Positions 1,505 through 21,486 of a stretch of DNA of 56,020 nucleotides are shown piece after piece. Origin of the DNA: Thermoplasmata archaeon (GTDB lineage: Archaea; Thermoplasmatota; Thermoplasmata; Thermoplasmatales; ARK-15); contig JBMFTB010000003.1 of assembly GCA_049967255.1 (NCBI GenBank), forward strand, positions 1 through 56,020. The letters are read 5' to 3'. A program made the translations under genes and the position numbers. Numbering within the stretch: position 1 is the stretch's first letter; each line of letters begins with the position of its first letter. Under the pieces are notes generated by a model. It was not told the origin of the DNA, made no database searches, and saw nothing but the letters and a program-made list of their open reading frames with translations.

Positions 1505-1623
1505 ATATTTAGAAATATGATAAAATATTTAAATTTTTCATTCTTCTATATTTTATATAGTAATATATACAATATTTGAAGTATCTATATATATCTTTAA
1601 CAAATTTATGGATTGGTGAAAAA

Positions 1624-3015
1624 ATGGATAATAAAAATCCTTTCGAGGATATAGACTCTACAAAGCTTAACTTCGGCCATATAAAAATATGGTTCACTGC
1701 TGGCATGGGCTTTTTTACAGACGCATACGATTTATTCATAATAGGCATAGTTCTAATTCTTTTGACAGGGCCATATAGTACAGCATTTCATTTGAACACT
1801 GTTGAATCTGCCCTAATAGGTACATCCGCACTTGCGGCTGCTATAATAGGGCAGCTTATGTTTGGTAGAATAGCGGATATAATAGGTAGAAAGAAGGTTT
1901 ACGGTATAGAAGCTTCCATATTGGCAATCGGTGCGATACTCAGCGCATTTTCTATGAATTTTTTGTTTTTGTTCCTATCAAGATTTCTCCTTGGTATAGG
2001 CATAGGTGGTGATTACCCTGTAAGTGCAACAATAATGAGTGAATATTCAAACAGGAAGGACAGAGGTAAACTTATAGGCTTTGTTTTTGCAAATCAGGGT
2101 ATAGGCTCTGTTGTAGCAGTAGCTGTGGGCGTGATTTCAGTCGTTGCATTCTCCCCTGACCTTGCCTGGAGGTTTATGCTAGCATTTGGGGCAATACCAG
2201 CATTATCCGTAATTTATCTAAGGAGAAAGCTTCCTGAGACACCTAGATATTCTTTGCTAGTTTCACAGGATATTGAAACTGCTAAAAACGCAAAGAAAGT
2301 GGTAGGAGTAAACGATAAAAATTTGCCAAAGGCTTCTACCCAGGTATCAAAGTTCTCAACTTTCATAAAAGCATATTGGAAAACATTGCTAATTACTTCA
2401 AGCACCTGGTTCTTCCTTGATATAGCATATTATGGCACTGGTATATATTCAAGCCCTATTGTAAGCAATATAGTATCAGCAGGCACACTTCCAATGAAAA
2501 TTTTGATTGCTGGTTTGCCTTTCATGGTTGGCTTTTTCGGATACTTTACGGCAGTAGGATTACTTGACAAACTCGGCAGAAAGACCATACAGGTACAAGG
2601 TTTCTTCATGATGGCGCTTCTATACATAATAGTTTCAAGTGTAATGATCGTTCACGGATCGAAAGTTGTTGGATTTACTATACCAGTTGATATTGCATTT
2701 ATCCTTTACTCGCTATCATTCTTCTTCATAGACTTCGGCCCAAATGAAACAACATTCATTTTGCCTGCAGAAGTTTTCCCTGTTAAGTATAGAACTACAG
2801 GCCATGGTATTTCTGCAGCTGCAGGAAAAGTTGGTGCAGCAATCAGCACATTCCTAATGCCTGTCCTGTTAATCACAATTGGTATAAAAGAGGTACTTTT
2901 AATTCTGGGAGGCATATCAATAATAGGCGGTTTGATTTCTTTAGCAATAAAAGAACCAGCAAATAAATCACTGGAAGAGGCTTCAAATGAAAAAATAATC
3001 GTTCAACCAGACTAA
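1624..3015 (+). CDS. MFS transporter, phosphate:H+ symporter (Pho84/PHS)-like
   Basis: GMGFFTDAYDLF, GIGIGGDYPVSATIMSEY, FGPNETTFILPAEVFP motifs; about 12 TM; GGTGA SD at 1615-1619 favours ATG 1624; divergent from phoU-like gene. Confidence 0.88.
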   Translation: MDNKNPFEDIDSTKLNFGHIKIWFTAGMGFFTDAYDLFIIGIVLILLTGPYSTAFHLNTVESALIGTSALAAAIIGQLMFGRIADIIGRKKVYGIEASILAIGAILSAFSMNFLFLFLSRFLLGIGIGGDYPVSATIMSEYSNRKDRGKLIGFVFANQGIGSVVAVAVGVISVVAFSPDLAWRFMLAFGAIPALSVIYLRRKLPETPRYSLLVSQDIETAKNAKKVVGVNDKNLPKASTQVSKFSTFIKAYWKTLLITSSTWFFLDIAYYGTGIYSSPIVSNIVSAGTLPMKILIAGLPFMVGFFGYFTAVGLLDKLGRKTIQVQGFFMMALLYIIVSSVMIVHGSKVVGFTIPVDIAFILYSLSFFFIDFGPNETTFILPAEVFPVKYRTTGHGISAAAGKVGAAISTFLMPVLLITIGIKEVLLILGGISIIGGLISLAIKEPANKSLEEASNEKIIVQPD

Positions 3016-5620: not shown

Positions 5621-6373
5621 ATGGCTGATGTACTTGAAATAAAGAATCTACATGTTGAAATTGAAGGTAAGGAGATTCTAAAGGGGGTAAATCTAAAAAT
5701 TGAAAAGGGTAAATTACACGCATTAATGGGTCCTAACGGTTCAGGAAAATCGACGCTTGCTCATGTTATAATGGGTGATAAAAGATACAAAATCACTGAA
5801 GGAACAGTGCTTTTTAATGATATTGACATAACATCCCTTGGAACGGATGAAAGGTCAAAACTTGGACTTTTCTTAACATTTCAAAACCCGGTTGAACTTT
5901 CAGGTGTGAAACTTTTCACCTTTCTCAGGTCAGCATATACAGTACATTATCCTGATGATAAGAAGACATTCCAGGAATTTATAACATTTGTACAATCGAA
6001 GGCAAAGCTGCTTAACATGGATACTTCTCTTTTAAGCAGAAACGTGAACGAAGGTTTTTCAGGGGGCGAAAAAAAGAAGGCTGAAATTTTACAGATGGCT
6101 CTGTTAAAGCCTAAAATAGCTATTGTGGATGAAATTGATTCAGGCCTTGATGTGGATGCGCTTGAGGCTGTTGCAAAATCGCTTAAGGAAACAATTTATT
6201 CAGAGCCAAAGATGGGTTCATTGCTTATAACGCATTACATGAGGATTCTGAAATACCTGTCCCCTGATAATGTTCATGTAATGATGGATGGAAAAATAGT
6301 ATTATCGGGCGATTACAGCCTTGCACTTAAAATAGAAGAGAAGGGATATGAATGGATAAAAGAGAAGAATTAA
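5621..6373 (+). CDS. sufC: Fe-S assembly ABC ATPase SufC
   Basis: GPNGSGKS, NEGFSGGEKKK, DEIDSGLDVDA. Confidence 0.95.
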   Translation: MADVLEIKNLHVEIEGKEILKGVNLKIEKGKLHALMGPNGSGKSTLAHVIMGDKRYKITEGTVLFNDIDITSLGTDERSKLGLFLTFQNPVELSGVKLFTFLRSAYTVHYPDDKKTFQEFITFVQSKAKLLNMDTSLLSRNVNEGFSGGEKKKAEILQMALLKPKIAIVDEIDSGLDVDALEAVAKSLKETIYSEPKMGSLLITHYMRILKYLSPDNVHVMMDGKIVLSGDYSLALKIEEKGYEWIKEKN

Positions 6374-7767
6374 AGGACATAATTCCTGAGGAAAATGGTC
6401 AGGGTAATTTCATCACAAAAGCTAGGTATCCGCATATATTCCAGGAAGGCCTGGATAGAAGAGTAGTTGAAGAAATTTCAGAAATAAAGAAGGAACCTGA
6501 ATGGATGAAGAGGCTGAGATTGAAGGCTCTTGAAATTTTTAATTCAAAGCCTATGCCAAACTGGGGGCCTCCTCTTGACATTGATTTTAACAAAATAAGG
6601 TACTATGTTCTGCCAGATGAGATCAAGGCAAGAAGATGGGAAGATTTGCCCCAGGAAATAAGGGAAACATATGAAAAATTGGGTCTACCTGAAATGGAAA
6701 AGAAATACCTGAGTGGATCAGTTGCTGTACTCGATTCTGAAGGTGTTTACGCAAACCTAAAAAAGCAGTTTGAGGAAAAAGGTGTTATATATTTGGACAC
6801 TGATACTGCATTGCAAAAATACCCAAATATATTCAGAGAATATTTTATGAATATCGTGCCTATAGGGGATAACAAATTTTCAGCACTCAATGGTGCTGTA
6901 TGGAGCGGTGGATCTTTCATTTATGTTCCTGAAAATGTGCATCTTGATCTTCCTCTTATGACATATTTCAGGATGAATATACAGGCCGAAGGCCAATTTG
7001 AACATACAATAATAATAGCTGAAAAAGGCGCGTCTGTGAGTTATATTGAAGGATGCACTGCCCCTATTTACAATACAAGTTCACTTCATAGTGCAGTCGT
7101 TGAGGTGTATGTGAAAGAGAATGCAAAGGTGAGGTTCACAACTGTTCAAAACTGGAGCCATGATATTTATAATCTTAATACTGAAAGGGCTAGGGTAGAA
7201 AAGAATGGAAAGATGGAGTGGGTAGGTGGTTCTCTTGGATCTAAGGTAACAATGTTATATCCATCATCCTATCTCGTAGGTGAAGGATCTTCAGCATCAC
7301 ATTTAACCATTGCACTTGCATCAGGCAATACATGGAAGGACAATGGTGCAAAGGTTTTACATCTTGCTCCTAATACATCATCAAAGATAATTTCAAAAAG
7401 TATAAGCATGAAAGGTGGAGTTTCTGTTTACAGGGGTCTTGTTAGAATACCAAAGGGAGCATTGAATGCAAAATCACATGTTCAATGCGATGCCCTTATA
7501 CTTGATGAAAGTTCCAAAAATTTTACATATCCACACAATGAGGTCTATGAGGAAACGTCTACACTTACGCACGAGGCATCAGCTGGAAAGATAGGTGAAG
7601 AACAGCTTTTCTATATAATGACCAGGGGTCTATCCGAGGATGAGGCAAGATCAATGATAGTTCTCGGATTTCTTGATGATATTATGCGCGAAATACCTTT
7701 GGAATTTTCCATTGAACTCAACAAACTCATAAGATTACAGCTTGGAAGGTATGGTGGTACAGGATGA
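6352..7767 (+). CDS. sufB: Fe-S assembly scaffold SufB
   Basis: QFEHTIIIAE, YIEGCTAP, SLHSAVVE, HEASAGKI motifs. Confidence 0.95.
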   Translation: MDKREELKDIIPEENGQGNFITKARYPHIFQEGLDRRVVEEISEIKKEPEWMKRLRLKALEIFNSKPMPNWGPPLDIDFNKIRYYVLPDEIKARRWEDLPQEIRETYEKLGLPEMEKKYLSGSVAVLDSEGVYANLKKQFEEKGVIYLDTDTALQKYPNIFREYFMNIVPIGDNKFSALNGAVWSGGSFIYVPENVHLDLPLMTYFRMNIQAEGQFEHTIIIAEKGASVSYIEGCTAPIYNTSSLHSAVVEVYVKENAKVRFTTVQNWSHDIYNLNTERARVEKNGKMEWVGGSLGSKVTMLYPSSYLVGEGSSASHLTIALASGNTWKDNGAKVLHLAPNTSSKIISKSISMKGGVSVYRGLVRIPKGALNAKSHVQCDALILDESSKNFTYPHNEVYEETSTLTHEASAGKIGEEQLFYIMTRGLSEDEARSMIVLGFLDDIMREIPLEFSIELNKLIRLQLGRYGGTG

Positions 7768-8972
7768 GCATTGAAGATAAAATAATAAAATTTTCAAGAT
7801 CAAGAAATGAGCCTGAGTGGCTCACGAATTTAAGATTATTAAATTTCAGGAAATATTTTGACATAAAGAAAAAATCCATTTCTGATTCACCACTTGAAAA
7901 GAGGTACACTACATTTGATATTGAGGAATTCCTTGACAATATTCCAGAGGAAACGCAGAAAGGAAAATTTATGGAGGAAAAGGATTATTTTGTTATTGAT
8001 TATACAAAAAATGGAAAGCTTGAAATTAATCCAAAATCCTTAAAATCTACAACATTAACAGGCATAAGGAATGCCATTTTAATGTACCCTGACCTTTTAA
8101 AAAGTTCTATGGAAAACGCGAATGATGAATGGACTGCTCTTGGAAATGCGCTTTGGGACACGGGCATATTTGTAAATGTTCCAGAAGAAAGAAGATGTGA
8201 AAGGATAATGAAATTTAAAACAATATTTCCTGAGCATGTAATTGTAAAAAAGGATTTATTTAACATAGGAGCCAATTCCTTTCTGCAGTTTGTTGAGTAT
8301 TCTAACGCCACAGAGAAATTCACGGGCATTGAAGAAACTTCTATATTCATAGGTAAAAATTCTTCACTCAAGCACCTTACAATGATAGATGGTGGTGGAT
8401 CAAAAATGGCTTCAATTAAAAATTCTCATATGATGTCTCAAGCCAGGGATGAATGGTACTATGCTGTAAAAAACGTAGAAAAGCACATTATAGTTACAAA
8501 CGCAGAGCTTTCAGGTGAATATTCTTCCATTGAACATAAGGGTGCTATACTTGCAAATGGTATGGAGCATTATGACGTCAATACAAATATTTTTCATAAT
8601 GCACATCATACAAAAAGTGATGCAAATGTTCGCGCAACCCTGGAAGGTAATTCAAGGGCCATAATGCGTGGGTCCATAAAGGTTTCAAAGGATGCAAATG
8701 ATTCAAATGCATATTTTGCTGGGAACGCTCTATTGTTAAGTGAAAATGCTAAAAGCAACGCCCTTCCATTTCTGGAAATAGAAGGGGACAGGGCAGTTGC
8801 TAAGCACGCGGCAACAGCTACAAACGTTGATTATGATCAACTTTTTTACATTCAGAGTCGCGGTGTGAATGAAAGAAGCGCAAAAAATCTTCTAGTAGAG
8901 GGATTTCTTGACCCTGTTGTTAGACAGATACTTATATATGAGGGGACGAGGTACCTGATATACTATGATTGA
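7764..8972 (+). CDS. sufD: Fe-S assembly protein SufD
   Basis: beta-helix paralog of SufB; ALPFLEI..D...KHAAT, LFYIQSRG; ATGA-coupled to sufB. Confidence 0.88.
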   Translation: MSIEDKIIKFSRSRNEPEWLTNLRLLNFRKYFDIKKKSISDSPLEKRYTTFDIEEFLDNIPEETQKGKFMEEKDYFVIDYTKNGKLEINPKSLKSTTLTGIRNAILMYPDLLKSSMENANDEWTALGNALWDTGIFVNVPEERRCERIMKFKTIFPEHVIVKKDLFNIGANSFLQFVEYSNATEKFTGIEETSIFIGKNSSLKHLTMIDGGGSKMASIKNSHMMSQARDEWYYAVKNVEKHIIVTNAELSGEYSSIEHKGAILANGMEHYDVNTNIFHNAHHTKSDANVRATLEGNSRAIMRGSIKVSKDANDSNAYFAGNALLLSENAKSNALPFLEIEGDRAVAKHAATATNVDYDQLFYIQSRGVNERSAKNLLVEGFLDPVVRQILIYEGTRYLIYYD

Positions 8973-17468: not shown

Positions 17469-17494
17469 TAAAAATCTTCTTAAAAAGATTTTTA
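17469..17494. promoter_or_regulatory. Inverted repeat TAAAAATCTT-N6-AAGATTTTTA, candidate operator
   Basis: Perfect 10-bp arms about 33 nt upstream of the MFS-DUF47 start, in a divergent promoter region. Confidence 0.4.
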
Positions 17495-17526
17495 ACATTC
17501 ATTGCCATGTAAGTATGTGATCGGAA

Positions 17527-19485
17527 TTGGATAAGGGAACAATAGCATCAACCATTGACAATATGGACGTTTCAAGGTTCCATTACAAAATGCTATTGCT
17601 TTCCGCCGCCGGTGTATTTCTTGATGGTTTCGATCTATTCATTATAAGTGTTGTTCTTCTATTCATTCGACCCATCTGGATAAATACCTTGCCCATAGGG
17701 CAGCAGGAAAGTGTTCTAGGTTTGCTTGCATCCTCCGCTCTTCTAGGGATGTTTTTAGGTGCTTTGACACTTGGCCATTATACGGATAGGATGGGACGAA
17801 AGGCTATGTATGTTGTAGATCTTATATTCTTTGTTATTTTTGCTGCATTGTCTGCAGTTTCAGCAAATATCTGGGAATTAATTATATTTAGGTTTTTACT
17901 TGGACTAGGCATAGGTGCAGATTATCCAATCAGCTCAACTTATGTAACAGAATTTTCTCCTAGCAAGGTCAGGGGAAGGTTAATTTCTACAACATTTATG
18001 TTTTGGGGCCTTGGTGCTTTAACTGCAGCTTTGGTTGGTTATTTAATTGCTCTTTTTCAACCCTTAGGAATTGATTCTTGGAGATTAATGCTTCTCTCAG
18101 GTATAGTCCCAGCTGTGATAGTTATAATTTTGAGAGCAACCATGCCAGAATCCCCGAGATGGTTATTATCCCAGGGTAAATCCAAAGAGGCAATAAAGGT
18201 TTTAAAATCATTGAATGTTGAAATACAGGAAAGCGATATTTTACCTTCAAAAAAAGAAAAAGCATCAATACGTGATTTACTTTCGCCAATTTACAGAAAA
18301 AGGACATTTTTTGCCTGGATACCTTGGTTTTTTATGGACATTGGTGTTTATGGCATTGGTATATATTTACCGACATTACTTTATGAACTCGGTTTTAAGA
18401 ATAATTTAAGTTCCATACTTGGTACGGCATTTCTAGACATATTCGGTATAATAGGTTTCATCCTCGCAATATATCTAATAGATAGGACCGGAAGGTTGAA
18501 GCTCCAGTCAATAGGTTTCCTTGGTATGACTGTTTCATTACTTCTTTTGGCAATATTAGGACCTATAAATCTTATTTTTTTATTCCTAATATTTGCAATA
18601 TTTCAGATATCTGAAAATGCAGGACCAAATACGACCACATGGGTTGTAGCTACAGAACTTTTCCCAACAAGGTTAAGGGCAACTGCACAGGGATCATCTG
18701 CTGCAATAAGCAGGCTTGGTGCAATTTCAGGTGTATTTTTGCTTCCCATAATAACAGGTCTTTTTGGTAATGAAATTTCACTCATTTTTGTAGCCACAGC
18801 AACATTTCTTGGATTCCTTGTAACAGTTTTAATAGGCGAAGAAACCAGGGCACTTTCCCTGGAAGAAGCATCAACAGTTTTCAGAGAATTTTCATCATAT
18901 ATAGTAAAATTGACAACAAATGTTGAACTTGCTGCAAAGGAACTTTATGATCTTTCAATCAATTTTGAAAAAATACAAGAAAATGCAAAAAGGATCAAGG
19001 ATCTCGAACACGAAAATGATGAAATTGTATCTGAAATATTCAAAAAATTGAACAGGAAATTCCCTGCTCCAATAGATAATATGGATGTAGCGGCATTGGT
19101 GCGAGGTCTTGATGATATAATTGATGCTATTGAATCTACGAGTAAAAAAATGATTATTTATGATATAAAGAATTCAACAGATGAAATTATTGCACTCTCA
19201 GAAATAAACATGAAAGCTGTTTTTGAACTTAAGGAGGCACTTGTGAGCATAATGGCCATTAGACTTGGTGAATACAGTGAAATAGTTGAAAGATGCAGGG
19301 ATGTTCATAAGCTTGAAAATTATACAGATGATATTGTTGATAATGTAATCAAAGATATCTTGGGATCAAACGATCCAATGAAAATATTAAGGTACAAGGA
19401 AATTTACGAGAGCCTGGAGGGTATAACCGATAGGTGTGATGATGTGGCCGATATAATTTTGAGCCTGATAGTGAAATATTCTTAA
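17527..19485 (+). CDS. Pho84-like MFS transporter fused to C-terminal DUF47 (PhoU-like) domain
   Basis: N-term about 450 aa: GVFLDGFDLF, GLGIGADYPISSTYVTEF, AGPNTTTWVVATELFP; C-term about 200 aa: LEHEND, PIDNMD...LDDIIDAIE, KEIYESLEGITDRCDDVAD; TTG start. Confidence 0.85.
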   Translation: MDKGTIASTIDNMDVSRFHYKMLLLSAAGVFLDGFDLFIISVVLLFIRPIWINTLPIGQQESVLGLLASSALLGMFLGALTLGHYTDRMGRKAMYVVDLIFFVIFAALSAVSANIWELIIFRFLLGLGIGADYPISSTYVTEFSPSKVRGRLISTTFMFWGLGALTAALVGYLIALFQPLGIDSWRLMLLSGIVPAVIVIILRATMPESPRWLLSQGKSKEAIKVLKSLNVEIQESDILPSKKEKASIRDLLSPIYRKRTFFAWIPWFFMDIGVYGIGIYLPTLLYELGFKNNLSSILGTAFLDIFGIIGFILAIYLIDRTGRLKLQSIGFLGMTVSLLLLAILGPINLIFLFLIFAIFQISENAGPNTTTWVVATELFPTRLRATAQGSSAAISRLGAISGVFLLPIITGLFGNEISLIFVATATFLGFLVTVLIGEETRALSLEEASTVFREFSSYIVKLTTNVELAAKELYDLSINFEKIQENAKRIKDLEHENDEIVSEIFKKLNRKFPAPIDNMDVAALVRGLDDIIDAIESTSKKMIIYDIKNSTDEIIALSEINMKAVFELKEALVSIMAIRLGEYSEIVERCRDVHKLENYTDDIVDNVIKDILGSNDPMKILRYKEIYESLEGITDRCDDVADIILSLIVKYS

Positions 19486-19535: not shown

Positions 19536-20324
19536 ATGATAGAAAAACTTTCTGAAATTGGAAAAATCGTTAGAAAGTCCGTTCAGGAATTTTTAGATAA
19601 AAATTATATGGGTGCAAGAGAAATAATGAAGATAGGGGCTGATGGTACACCAACATCAAAGATTGATCTCATCGCGGAAGATGAAGTTTTCAGGTTTGTA
19701 AAGGAAAAGGATCTTCCCTTAAACATTTTGAGCGAGGAATATGGTTTTTTTGATAGAAATTATGAGTACACGCTTGTCCTTGATCCTATCGATGGTTCTT
19801 TTAATGCAGAAATGAACATCCCATTCTATTCAATTTCCATGGCAATTGGAAAAAAAGATTTGATGGATGTTAAATACGCGCTTGTAATGAATCTTATAAA
19901 TGGAAAAAGATACTGGGCGGAGAAGGGTAAAGGAGCATATTTTGAAGAAAGAAAATTAAAAGCAAAAAATAATCATGATGAAATTCTTAGTGTCATAAGT
20001 ATGGGTAAAGAATCATCTGAAGTCATATGGAAAATAATTAAAAATTCAAGGAGGGTAAGGTCCTTTGGTTGCGCCTCTCTCGAGATGTCATTGGTTGCTG
20101 ATGGTAGTGCTGATATTTTCCTATATTACTTCACAAAAAGGAATGTATTGAGAGTTATTGACATTGCAGCAAGTACACTAATTGTTAGAGAATCAGGCGG
20201 TGAGGTTTATGACCTAAGCGATTTTTCACCACTTAATATGGCATATGATCTATCATTGAGAAAAAATATACTTGCATCTGGTGATGGAGCATATGCAAAA
20301 CAAATATGGAGGATGTTAAAATGA
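19536..20324 (+). CDS. Inositol monophosphatase/FBPase family phosphatase
   Basis: GADGTPTSKID..AE, SEE, DPIDGS, DIAAS. Confidence 0.9.
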   Translation: MIEKLSEIGKIVRKSVQEFLDKNYMGAREIMKIGADGTPTSKIDLIAEDEVFRFVKEKDLPLNILSEEYGFFDRNYEYTLVLDPIDGSFNAEMNIPFYSISMAIGKKDLMDVKYALVMNLINGKRYWAEKGKGAYFEERKLKAKNNHDEILSVISMGKESSEVIWKIIKNSRRVRSFGCASLEMSLVADGSADIFLYYFTKRNVLRVIDIAASTLIVRESGGEVYDLSDFSPLNMAYDLSLRKNILASGDGAYAKQIWRMLK

Positions 20325-21124
20325 AATTCGGCATTGTTGCCAATCCGGAAATAAGCAGGAGCATAAATGTTGCAAAATTTGTTTATGATTATCTTAAAAA
20401 AAATCATGATGTATTAATTGAATCAAAAACTGCTAAAAAGATGCATAAGAGTGGAATTCCCATTCCAGAAATGGATGTTGATATTATTATTACTATTGGT
20501 GGTGATGGTACAGTATTGAAAACTCTTCAGAACACAAACAAACCAATATTTCCAATAAACCTTGGGAAACTTGGATTTTTAACGGAAGTAGTACCTGTTG
20601 ACCTTGAATATTCCCTAGACAGGCTAATTAATGGTAATTATTTCCTTGATAAAAGAAAAAAAATAAAGGTTCTTCTAAATGAAAAAAGGTTGCCAGATTG
20701 CACAAATGAAGTTGTTATCCATACATCTGAAATATCAAAATTAAGAACATATGCAATCTACATCGACAGGGAACTGCTTGAAGATTTAAGAGCCGACGGG
20801 CTAATTGTTGCAACAGCAACAGGATCAACATCCTATGCAATGAGCACAGGAGGGCCTATCGTTGACCCAAGGATAAATGCTATGGTGATAGCGTATATCG
20901 CACCATTTAAGTTAAGCGTAAGGTCACATGTTGTACCTAGCAGTTCAGAGCTTGAAGTACATCTACTTGATAGAACAAGGAAAAGTGTAATAGTGCTAGA
21001 TGGACAAATGCAAAAGAAAATCACCCATAAAGACATAATAGATGTCACAGAAAGTGAGAATGAAGCAATATTTGTAAGGTTCAATCTGAGCTTTTATGAG
21101 AAATTGAGGGAAAAGATATTATGA
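20321..21124 (+). CDS. nadK: NAD kinase
   Basis: GGDGT, NLGKLGFL, NEVV, DGL..TATGSTSYAMSTGGP; ATGA overlap with the upstream gene. Confidence 0.93.
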   Translation: MKFGIVANPEISRSINVAKFVYDYLKKNHDVLIESKTAKKMHKSGIPIPEMDVDIIITIGGDGTVLKTLQNTNKPIFPINLGKLGFLTEVVPVDLEYSLDRLINGNYFLDKRKKIKVLLNEKRLPDCTNEVVIHTSEISKLRTYAIYIDRELLEDLRADGLIVATATGSTSYAMSTGGPIVDPRINAMVIAYIAPFKLSVRSHVVPSSSELEVHLLDRTRKSVIVLDGQMQKKITHKDIIDVTESENEAIFVRFNLSFYEKLREKIL

Positions 21125-21486
21125 GCTACAGGATAAAAAAGGAAACGTTAGAAATGATAATGGAGAGTGCTAAGGATTCATATCCAAATGAATTTGCAGC
21201 ATTTTTAAGAGCTGACAGAAACATTATTTATGAAATTGTACTGCTTCCAGGAACAGTTTCAGGAAAAAGAAGTGCCGTTTACAGGCTTTATATGAAACCC
21301 ATAGATTTTTCTCTCATTGGTACAGTACATTCCCATCCATCAGGTGTTACTATTCCAAGCCCTGAAGATCTTGATCTTTTTTCAAAAACTGGAAAGGTAC
21401 ACATTATTGTGGGCTTTCCATATAGAATAACAGATTTTTCCGCTTATGATAGGAATGGCAAAAATATAGATGTTGAGATATTATGA
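21121..21486 (+). CDS. JAMM/MPN+ metalloprotease
   Basis: YPNE, HSHPSG..PS..D motif. Confidence 0.9.
   Translation: MSYRIKKETLEMIMESAKDSYPNEFAAFLRADRNIIYEIVLLPGTVSGKRSAVYRLYMKPIDFSLIGTVHSHPSGVTIPSPEDLDLFSKTGKVHIIVGFPYRITDFSAYDRNGKNIDVEIL

Follow-up and report, generated by a model that had tools for sequence, protein, structure and literature searches.

Gene structure

The DNA analysed here, referred to below as the window, is a stretch of 56,020 nucleotides from a Thermoplasmata archaeon (contig JBMFTB010000003.1 of assembly GCA_049967255.1). The gene of interest in it encodes a carrier of the major facilitator superfamily (MFS) that continues at its C-terminus into a DUF47 (PhoU_div) domain. 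The gene and its parts are as follows, with the source of each assignment in brackets.

17527..19485, forward strand: whole coding sequence, 652 amino acids plus stop, TTG start (open reading frame list and translation)
17490..17495, forward strand: TATA-like TTTTAA, 32-37 nucleotides 5' of the TTG start (read from the sequence)
17575..18834, forward strand: MFS carrier core, residues 17-436 (Pfam, AlphaFold2 helices, HMMER alignment, Foldseek, residue table)
18835..18891, forward strand: junction, residues 437-455, GEETRALSLEEASTVFREF (alignment of 36 sequences; predicted local distance difference test, pLDDT)
18892..19482, forward strand: DUF47/PhoU_div domain, residues 456-652 (Pfam PF01865, PDB 3l39, AlphaFold2)

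A preliminary description of the locus had reported that one uninterrupted frame of 652 residues joins an MFS carrier to DUF47, and the open reading frame list, the translation and the Pfam calls all bear this out. No internal stop was met when 17527..19485 was translated on the forward strand, and the frame is the sole long one listed in the region. The next in-frame ATG after the TTG is codon 13, at 17563; because residues 5-12 (TIxSxIDN) are conserved in homologues whose starts lie further upstream, the TTG was preferred as the start. The TTTTAA at 17490..17495 is a possible archaeal promoter element.

In the Pfam search, Sugar_tr (PF00083) matched residues 26-452 (E 1.7e-67, 228.7 bits against a cut-off of 22.3), MFS_1 (PF07690) matched residues 28-402 (E 6.7e-39, 134.2 bits against 33.4) and PhoU_div/DUF47 (PF01865) matched residues 450-649 (E 2.2e-21, 76.6 bits against 24.4). 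The last match covers positions 8-213 of the 214 in the profile and all the acidic residues that are invariant in the family are kept, so the domain is complete, as had been claimed; the DUF47 motifs quoted earlier were also found in the translation (LEHENDEIV, PIDNMDVAALVRGLDDIIDAIE and KEIYESLEGITDRCDDVAD). The carrier core consists of 12 transmembrane helices (TM1 to TM12), and residues 204-256 form an intracellular helical loop that separates TM6 from TM7; by its profile score and its 12-helix, 6+6 topology the protein belongs to the MFS and is sugar-porter-like. The DUF47 part is built of six helices, that is, two three-helix repeats. Between the two, the junction is made up of the C-terminal 'ETxxxSLEE' segment of sugar porters and a short helix that enters the first DUF47 helix with no spacer. 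The AlphaFold2 model of the full-length protein had a mean pLDDT of 85.1 and a predicted template modelling score (pTM) of 0.68, and both domains were predicted confidently.

Occurrence of the fusion in other genomes

Homologue clusters were drawn from NCBI, JGI, ENA, MGnify and Logan assemblies, and both PF00083 and PF01865 were annotated in 101 of the 120 best clusters, nearly all of them with proteins of 620-715 amino acids. Additionally, a scan covering one genome per GTDB species yielded 80 loci. With our own profiles built for each half, a single open frame with both domains was detected in 56 of them, all in other genome records and mostly in separate species-level metagenome-assembled genomes (MAGs); the window locus is the 57th. 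Because the same frame recurs in separately assembled genome records, an assembly artefact is untenable and the MFS-DUF47 fusion is genuine. The junction itself is among the best-conserved stretches of the protein: in 36 aligned fused sequences it follows the consensus G-x-E-T-K-x-L-S-L-E-D-V-S-E-I-F-K-x-F-Y, and L445, S449, F452 and F455 are invariant.

The fused form was found in MAGs only and in three groups, namely Thermoplasmatota, Nitrososphaerota ("Thaumarchaeota"), and Marsarchaeota together with Thermoprotei; the Thermoplasmatota set includes I-plasma (acid mine drainage) and an Aciduliprofundum MAG. Judging by their isolate names, these MAGs come from acid mine drainage, acidic hot springs and vents. 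From the window's class, 151 evenly sampled genomes were searched with a junction-spanning query, and 21 of them, from three families, had a frame of 650 amino acids or more that covers both parts. The DUF47 part was also compared with its relatives after clustering at 50%; of the 150 best ones, only about 5 were fused representatives, and the others were stand-alone proteins of 205-215 amino acids with 28-38% identity. The fused architecture is thus lineage-restricted yet common where present.

In both Marsarchaeota records, L061 (G2) and L077 (G1), the fused gene is frameshifted within its MFS half, at about 6000-7880, which is either sequencing error or decay. We also noticed a stand-alone DUF47 gene (211 amino acids) 1 kb downstream of the fused gene and on the opposite strand in one Thaumarchaeota MAG (L082:8980-9612, reverse strand); its product groups with the stand-alone proteins, outside the fused clade.

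No description of an MFS-DUF47 protein was found in full-text literature searches aimed at the architecture, and in databases such proteins go by the name "MFS transporter" or, in the JGI records, "predicted phosphate transport protein (TIGR00153 family)". The earlier view that the architecture is uncharacterised therefore stands as far as a describing paper is concerned, although the architecture is not rare, being widespread in archaeal MAGs from acid habitats and present in public databases.

The carrier half

The carrier had been likened to Pho84 at the outset, and several results strengthened this comparison. The best sequence matches in the PDB were OsPT11 (rice PHT1;11; 9kmq, 7.8e-48) and PiPT of Piriformospora indica (7sp5, 3e-39), with a bacterial glucose carrier (4lds, 2.2e-40) ranking between the two, and the first Foldseek match of the AlphaFold2 model was again PiPT (7sp5_A). 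The target-normalised TM-scores against solved MFS structures were 0.75-0.83. The site residues of PiPT were mapped onto the query through a HMMER alignment to 7sp5, whose chain numbering is the native one plus 2.

PiPT D45 / D48: query D33 / D36
PiPT D149-Y150: query D132-Y133
PiPT Q177: query W160
PiPT W320 / D324 / Y328: query W267 / D271 / Y275
PiPT N431: query N368
PiPT K459: query R396

The full list of PiPT site residues is reportedly that of Pedersen et al. 2013. The PDB holds variant entries of PiPT with Y150A, D324E, Y328F and K459Q, the titles of which confirm that these four residues were studied, and Asp324 is the proposed protonation site (PMC3824880). We then compiled the site residues of 79 homologues, 54 fused and 25 unfused. 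The equivalents of D45, D48, D149, Y150, W320, D324, Y328 and N431 were invariant in 54 of 54 fused homologues, and the same eight positions were kept in the 25 unfused ones bar two deviations, each in a single sequence (N429 to D and N431 to G).

Besides the unfused carrier of the window described below, the genome encodes two more unfused paralogues, at C5:40882-42267 and C93:435-1781. These two also have W for Q177 and R for K459 and, in addition, T for both D48 and N431.

The DUF47 half

The C-terminal part matched PDB entry 3l39, a 'putative PhoU-like phosphate regulatory protein' (E 1.1e-18), and the six helices predicted by AlphaFold2 lie within residues 456-651. Its acidic motifs are E494-H-x-x-D498, D529-D-x-x-D533, E597-N-x-x-D601 and E631-x3-D635-x3-D639. 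When 55 fused domains were aligned with 130 stand-alone representatives, E494, D498, P515, D529, D533, E597, D601, E631 and D635 were conserved in 100% of the fused and in 98-100% of the stand-alone sequences. PhoU-family proteins bind metal clusters via E/DxxxD motifs. The conservation suggests that the fused domain has retained the binding capacity of the DUF47 acidic clusters, whatever the ligand. With TIGR00153, the NCBIfam hypothetical equivalog for DUF47 proteins, the query scored 51.3 bits and missed the cut-off of 104.3.

Host genome and gene neighbourhood

The host assembly has 1.54 Mb in 193 contigs and is 96% complete. Three DUF47 matches were found in it, the fusion and two very divergent stand-alone genes, neither of which lies beside a gene for a PiT-family transporter.

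C2:16171-16776 (L002): stand-alone DUF47 gene, adjoining genes for a glycerophosphodiester phosphodiesterase and a glycerol kinase
C4:40975-41562 (L003): stand-alone DUF47 gene, between the genes for PolB (DNA polymerase B) and eIF2-gamma

The sole PiT of the genome (C13:10277-11023) is short (301 amino acids), has no DUF47 gene beside it and is flanked by genes for an aldehyde dehydrogenase and a glycerol-3-phosphate-oxidase-like FAD enzyme. The genome encodes one PhoU-domain protein, an AbrB/MazE-PhoU regulator of 330 amino acids, the gene of which lies in the window at 512-1504 on the reverse strand. Divergent from it, at 1576-3015 on the forward strand, is an unfused MFS gene of the phosphate:H+ symporter (PHS) type, whose product has canonical GGDYP, NQG, WFxLDIAYYG, FGPN and GK motifs. 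The two genes appear to form a second pairing of an MFS-family carrier with a PhoU-family protein in the window and would support a link of this MFS family with phosphate.

Domain profile searches of the 96%-complete genome detected neither HisKA nor Response_reg domains. There was also no PstB above the cut-off in the genome, and neither PPK1 nor a Ppx-GppA exopolyphosphatase was found, while PPK2 was not searched for. Since the genome is without a two-component system, the route known in bacteria, repression of PhoR by proteins of the PhoU type (PMC13170248), cannot apply here; and with PstB nowhere above the cut-off and a single short PiT that lacks a DUF47 neighbour, the MFS carriers are likely to be the main route of phosphate entry.

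Four genes follow directly downstream of the fusion, at 19536-21486 on the forward strand, and encode a protein of the inositol-monophosphatase family, an NAD kinase (overlapping gene), a JAB-type protein and a ComB-like protein. These genes are the neighbours of the fusion in the clade of the window, and their order is kept in 10 of 10 clade loci. Some archaea fuse an inositol-monophosphatase-like domain and NAD kinase into one protein. In the I-plasma-like clade the fusion neighbours genes for FGAM synthase subunits, and in the Nitrososphaerota clade genes for a DUF84 NTPase and a 2-oxoacid:ferredoxin oxidoreductase.

Evolutionary history

In the DUF47 tree every fused domain fell into one clade (Shimodaira-Hasegawa-like approximate likelihood ratio test, 97) with three subclades, Nitrososphaerota, Marsarchaeota/Thermoprotei and Thermoplasmatota, and the same three fused clades were seen in the MFS tree. 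At the level of sequence phylogeny, a single origin of the fused DUF47 domains is thus shown. An approximately unbiased test had rejected their monophyly (p 0.0001) when the rows P0126 and P0129 were labelled as stand-alone, and this rejection was traced to mislabelling: both sequences start inside TM12 and are gene-call fragments of fused proteins, and once they are relabelled the free tree already has one fused clade.

In the MFS tree, a group of unfused bacterial carriers (Sulfobacillus, other Bacillota and Thiotrichales/Francisellaceae) shared a branch with 100% support with the Thermoplasmatota fused clade. These relatives are 37-48% identical to the query over the carrier and have the same site residues, but they lack the DUF47 domain, and the gammaproteobacterial forms carry an unrelated coiled-coil tail. 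A split, 'Rosetta-stone' type of pair was also sought, and no DUF47 gene was found within 6 kb of any unfused bacterial relative. The simplest history would be one fusion that spread among archaeal phyla, with the domain lost on transfer to bacteria; the root of the MFS tree, on which the direction of gain and loss depends, sits on a very long outgroup branch.

The unfused carriers of Thiotrichales/Francisellaceae (L072-L087) have a conserved, coiled-coil-like tail of 45-60 amino acids after TM12, for example IETEMNAAEISLLHVQDDIRRLSNDLK. The possibility that these gammaproteobacterial tails are vestigial DUF47 domains was considered and rejected, as they are coiled-coil-like and their profile scores were insignificant (E 0.015-0.3 in a tiny database). 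The tail may be another regulatory appendage at the same attachment point.

Discussion

DUF47 proteins had been described as normally encoded by separate genes paired with those of PiT transporters, and a bacterial survey agrees with this for PitR and PitA: 97.8% of the PitR-bearing genomes also have PitA, and pitA adjoins pitR with one exception (PMC13170248). The C-terminal 200 residues of the query resemble PitR in being a full-length member of the same Pfam family, with all the invariant acidic residues and a tie to a phosphate carrier. Unlike PitR, it is not the product of a separate gene next to a PiT (PHO4, PF01384) but is joined covalently to its carrier, which is an MFS protein, and the host has no two-component system of the PhoPR/PhoBR type that it could control.

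A secondary phosphate carrier with a C-terminally fused regulatory domain of the PhoU superfamily is known in NptA of S. aureus (PMC13170248). The domains differ, however, since NptA combines Na_Pi_cotrans (PF02690) with PhoU (PF01895) and the query combines an MFS carrier with PhoU_div (PF01865); neither PF02690 nor PF01895 was among the Pfam matches of the query at E up to 0.01. In addition, NptA-PhoU was surveyed in bacteria, where it occurs in 258 of 926 genomes (PMC13170248), whereas the MFS-DUF47 fusion is archaeal.

On the carrier side, PiPT, Pho84 and plant PHT1 gave the best sequence and fold matches, and the aspartates of TM1 and TM4, the W-x3-D-x3-Y of TM7 and the asparagine of TM10 are conserved between PiPT and the query. 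The query differs from PiPT in that the identity is about 26%, the TIGR00887 cut-off is not reached and W160 and R396 stand for Q177 and K459; in addition, it has a DUF47 domain, which the eukaryotic PHS carriers lack. Plant SPX-MFS proteins (the vacuolar transporters PHT5/VPT1) likewise have an MFS phosphate carrier with a covalent, helical, cytoplasmic phosphate-status domain (PMC4821872). SPX is nevertheless unrelated to DUF47 and N-terminal, whereas the DUF47 domain is C-terminal; the MFS subfamilies differ, and Pfam gave no SPX match in the query. SPX reads inositol pyrophosphates. The comparison with SPX-MFS proteins made in the preliminary description is apt as a functional analogy, although the principle of a fused regulator is not new, with NptA-PhoU and SPX-MFS as precedents.

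Taking these results together, we lean towards the reading that the protein is a proton-coupled phosphate carrier of the PHS-like branch (Pho84/PiPT) and that its cytoplasmic, PitR-type DUF47 domain gives feedback inhibition in cis. Mechanistically, DUF47 most likely either controls transport directly in cis or signals to another partner, and the fusion probably enables the carrier to switch itself off. DUF47 would then be a built-in sensor that gates the carrier, as had been supposed from the start.

In the proposed mechanism, the last transmembrane helix would lead through the conserved 19-residue segment into the cytoplasmic DUF47 domain, and the E/DxxxD clusters of this domain would read the phosphate status of the cytoplasm or, alternatively, a metal-phosphate signal. 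In MFS proteins of the sugar-porter type, the 'ETxxxSLEE' segment is part of the intracellular latch. Attached to this C-terminal latch, DUF47 could bias the carrier between its outward and inward states, and under phosphate sufficiency uptake would be limited in cis. A brake of this kind would be of use in acidic habitats, in which a large pH gradient would push an H+/Pi symporter to overload the cell, and the distribution of the fusion in acid habitats fits the need for a brake on an H+-coupled importer. In bacteria, NptA's PhoU domain and PitR both work together with the transporter they belong to, and going by the data on NptA such domains may, in addition, modulate import itself (PMC13170248). 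Rather tentatively, we raise the wider possibility that PitR-type DUF47 domains are modules for phosphate status that are not bound to one transporter family and act by direct contact with the carrier, in the present case gating an MFS H+/phosphate symporter via its C-terminal latch.

Several observations weigh against phosphate uptake that is inhibited in cis. The linker of the AlphaFold2 model (residues 442-450) has a pLDDT of about 42, that is, below 50, and no docking geometry is supported. Conservation throughout the three fused clades, combined with a difference from the unfused relatives, was seen at 11 positions; most of them are intramembrane and only R382 and S449 are cytoplasmic, and no convincing cytoplasmic docking patch was found among these fused-specific residues. 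PitR of S. aureus showed no two-hybrid interaction with transporter proteins (PMC11705898). Among the 56 fused loci there was no phosphate-related gene neighbour and none that is shared across clades, the synteny being lineage-specific. As for the substrate, the score with TIGR00887 (phosphate:H+ symporter) was 204.3 bits, far below the cut-off of 610.3, and the best NCBIfam match, TIGR00895 (aromatic acid/H+ symporter, 220.9 bits), was below its cut-off as well. Because the TIGR00887 score is below the curated cut-off, we regard the carrier as apparently PHS-like only and would not count it as an established member of the PHS family (TC 2.A.1.9). Finally, W160 and R396 replace Q177 and K459 in 36 of 36 Thermoplasmatota fused sequences, the query included. 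Q and K are kept in the remaining 18 of the 54 fused sequences (Nitrososphaerota, Marsarchaeota) and in 24 of the 25 unfused ones, bacterial relatives included. The coupled change may mean altered selectivity or an adaptation to pH.

The main rival to inhibition in cis, which we consider rather unlikely, is that the protein is a transceptor or signalling hub: it would carry phosphate, and DUF47, instead of gating the carrier, would report its activity or the phosphate status to a cytoplasmic partner. Bacterial PitR and NptA's PhoU domain act mainly by controlling PhoPR (PMC13170248), PitR of S. aureus forms homodimers (PMC11705898) and yeast Pho84 is a known transceptor (PMC3824880). The genome also offers candidate partners, namely the AbrB-PhoU regulator of the window and, through DUF47-DUF47 dimerisation, the two orphan DUF47 proteins encoded away from any PiT. 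However, no partner is conserved beside the fusion across lineages, and the orphan DUF47 proteins are 24-25% identical to the fused domain and sit on very long branches. Signalling as a transceptor and gating in cis could coexist.

It is less probable that the protein is a metal-phosphate carrier, possibly an exporter, that serves metal tolerance and whose DUF47 acidic clusters sense metal ions. The fusion does occur almost only in MAGs named for acid mine drainage, acidic hot springs and vents, and a review has proposed that Pho84-like carriers take part in the polyphosphate-based resistance of acidophilic archaea to copper (PMC5328820). Yet the polyphosphate arm is missing, with no Ppx-GppA and no PPK1 in the genome (and PPK2 outside the search), and all the proton-coupling residues of an importer-type symporter are retained.

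Slightly lower still we place a substrate other than phosphate (another oxyanion or an organic anion), with DUF47 as a general regulatory module unlinked to phosphate. The score with TIGR00895 is slightly above that with TIGR00887, both being below their cut-offs, and the Q177W/K459R change affects the whole Thermoplasmata clade as well as the two unfused paralogues that are also changed at D48 and N431. These points are countered by the invariance of 8 of the 10 PiPT site residues, by the canonical Q and K of the fused clades of Nitrososphaerota and Marsarchaeota, and by the preservation of charge in the change from K to R; moreover, all studied modules of the DUF47/PhoU family are tied to phosphate transport (PMC13170248). 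An assembly or frameshift artefact that united two adjacent genes, which the fragmentation of the source assembly into 193 contigs might have suggested, is effectively refuted by the identical single frame in 56 other loci and in over 100 clusters of proteins drawn from several databases, by the invariant junction residues and by the lack of a split MFS-plus-DUF47 gene pair beside any unfused relative.

A long-standing question about the PhoU family is whether its members act on the transporter itself or only on the sensor kinase. A bacterial survey of 2026 distinguished three pairings, in which PhoU goes with Pst and PitR with PitA, while NptA has a PhoU domain as part of its own chain; it covers bacteria only and single-domain PitR only, and the MFS is unmentioned in it (PMC13170248). 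The MFS-DUF47 protein would be a fourth pairing of regulator and carrier, archaeal and covalently fused, in hosts that lack the kinase believed to be under the control of such regulators, and it breaks the pattern of one PhoU clade for one transporter family. That a domain of the PitR type is joined to an MFS carrier in hosts without a two-component system argues for a direct, kinase-independent action. Since regulator and carrier are one chain, work with truncations, point mutants and cryo-electron microscopy is simple.

If DUF47 does gate the carrier by direct contact, the fusion would be a prokaryotic counterpart of SPX-MFS control in eukaryotes, and its single chain would allow the long-sought interface between a PhoU-family protein and a transporter to be solved by cryo-electron microscopy. 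The protein would also be the main brake on phosphate uptake in acidophilic archaea that have no Pst, PhoR/PhoB or polyphosphate enzymes. The fusion also offers a hint of the means by which acidophilic archaea that lack Pst may escape an overload of phosphate when the pH gradient is large.

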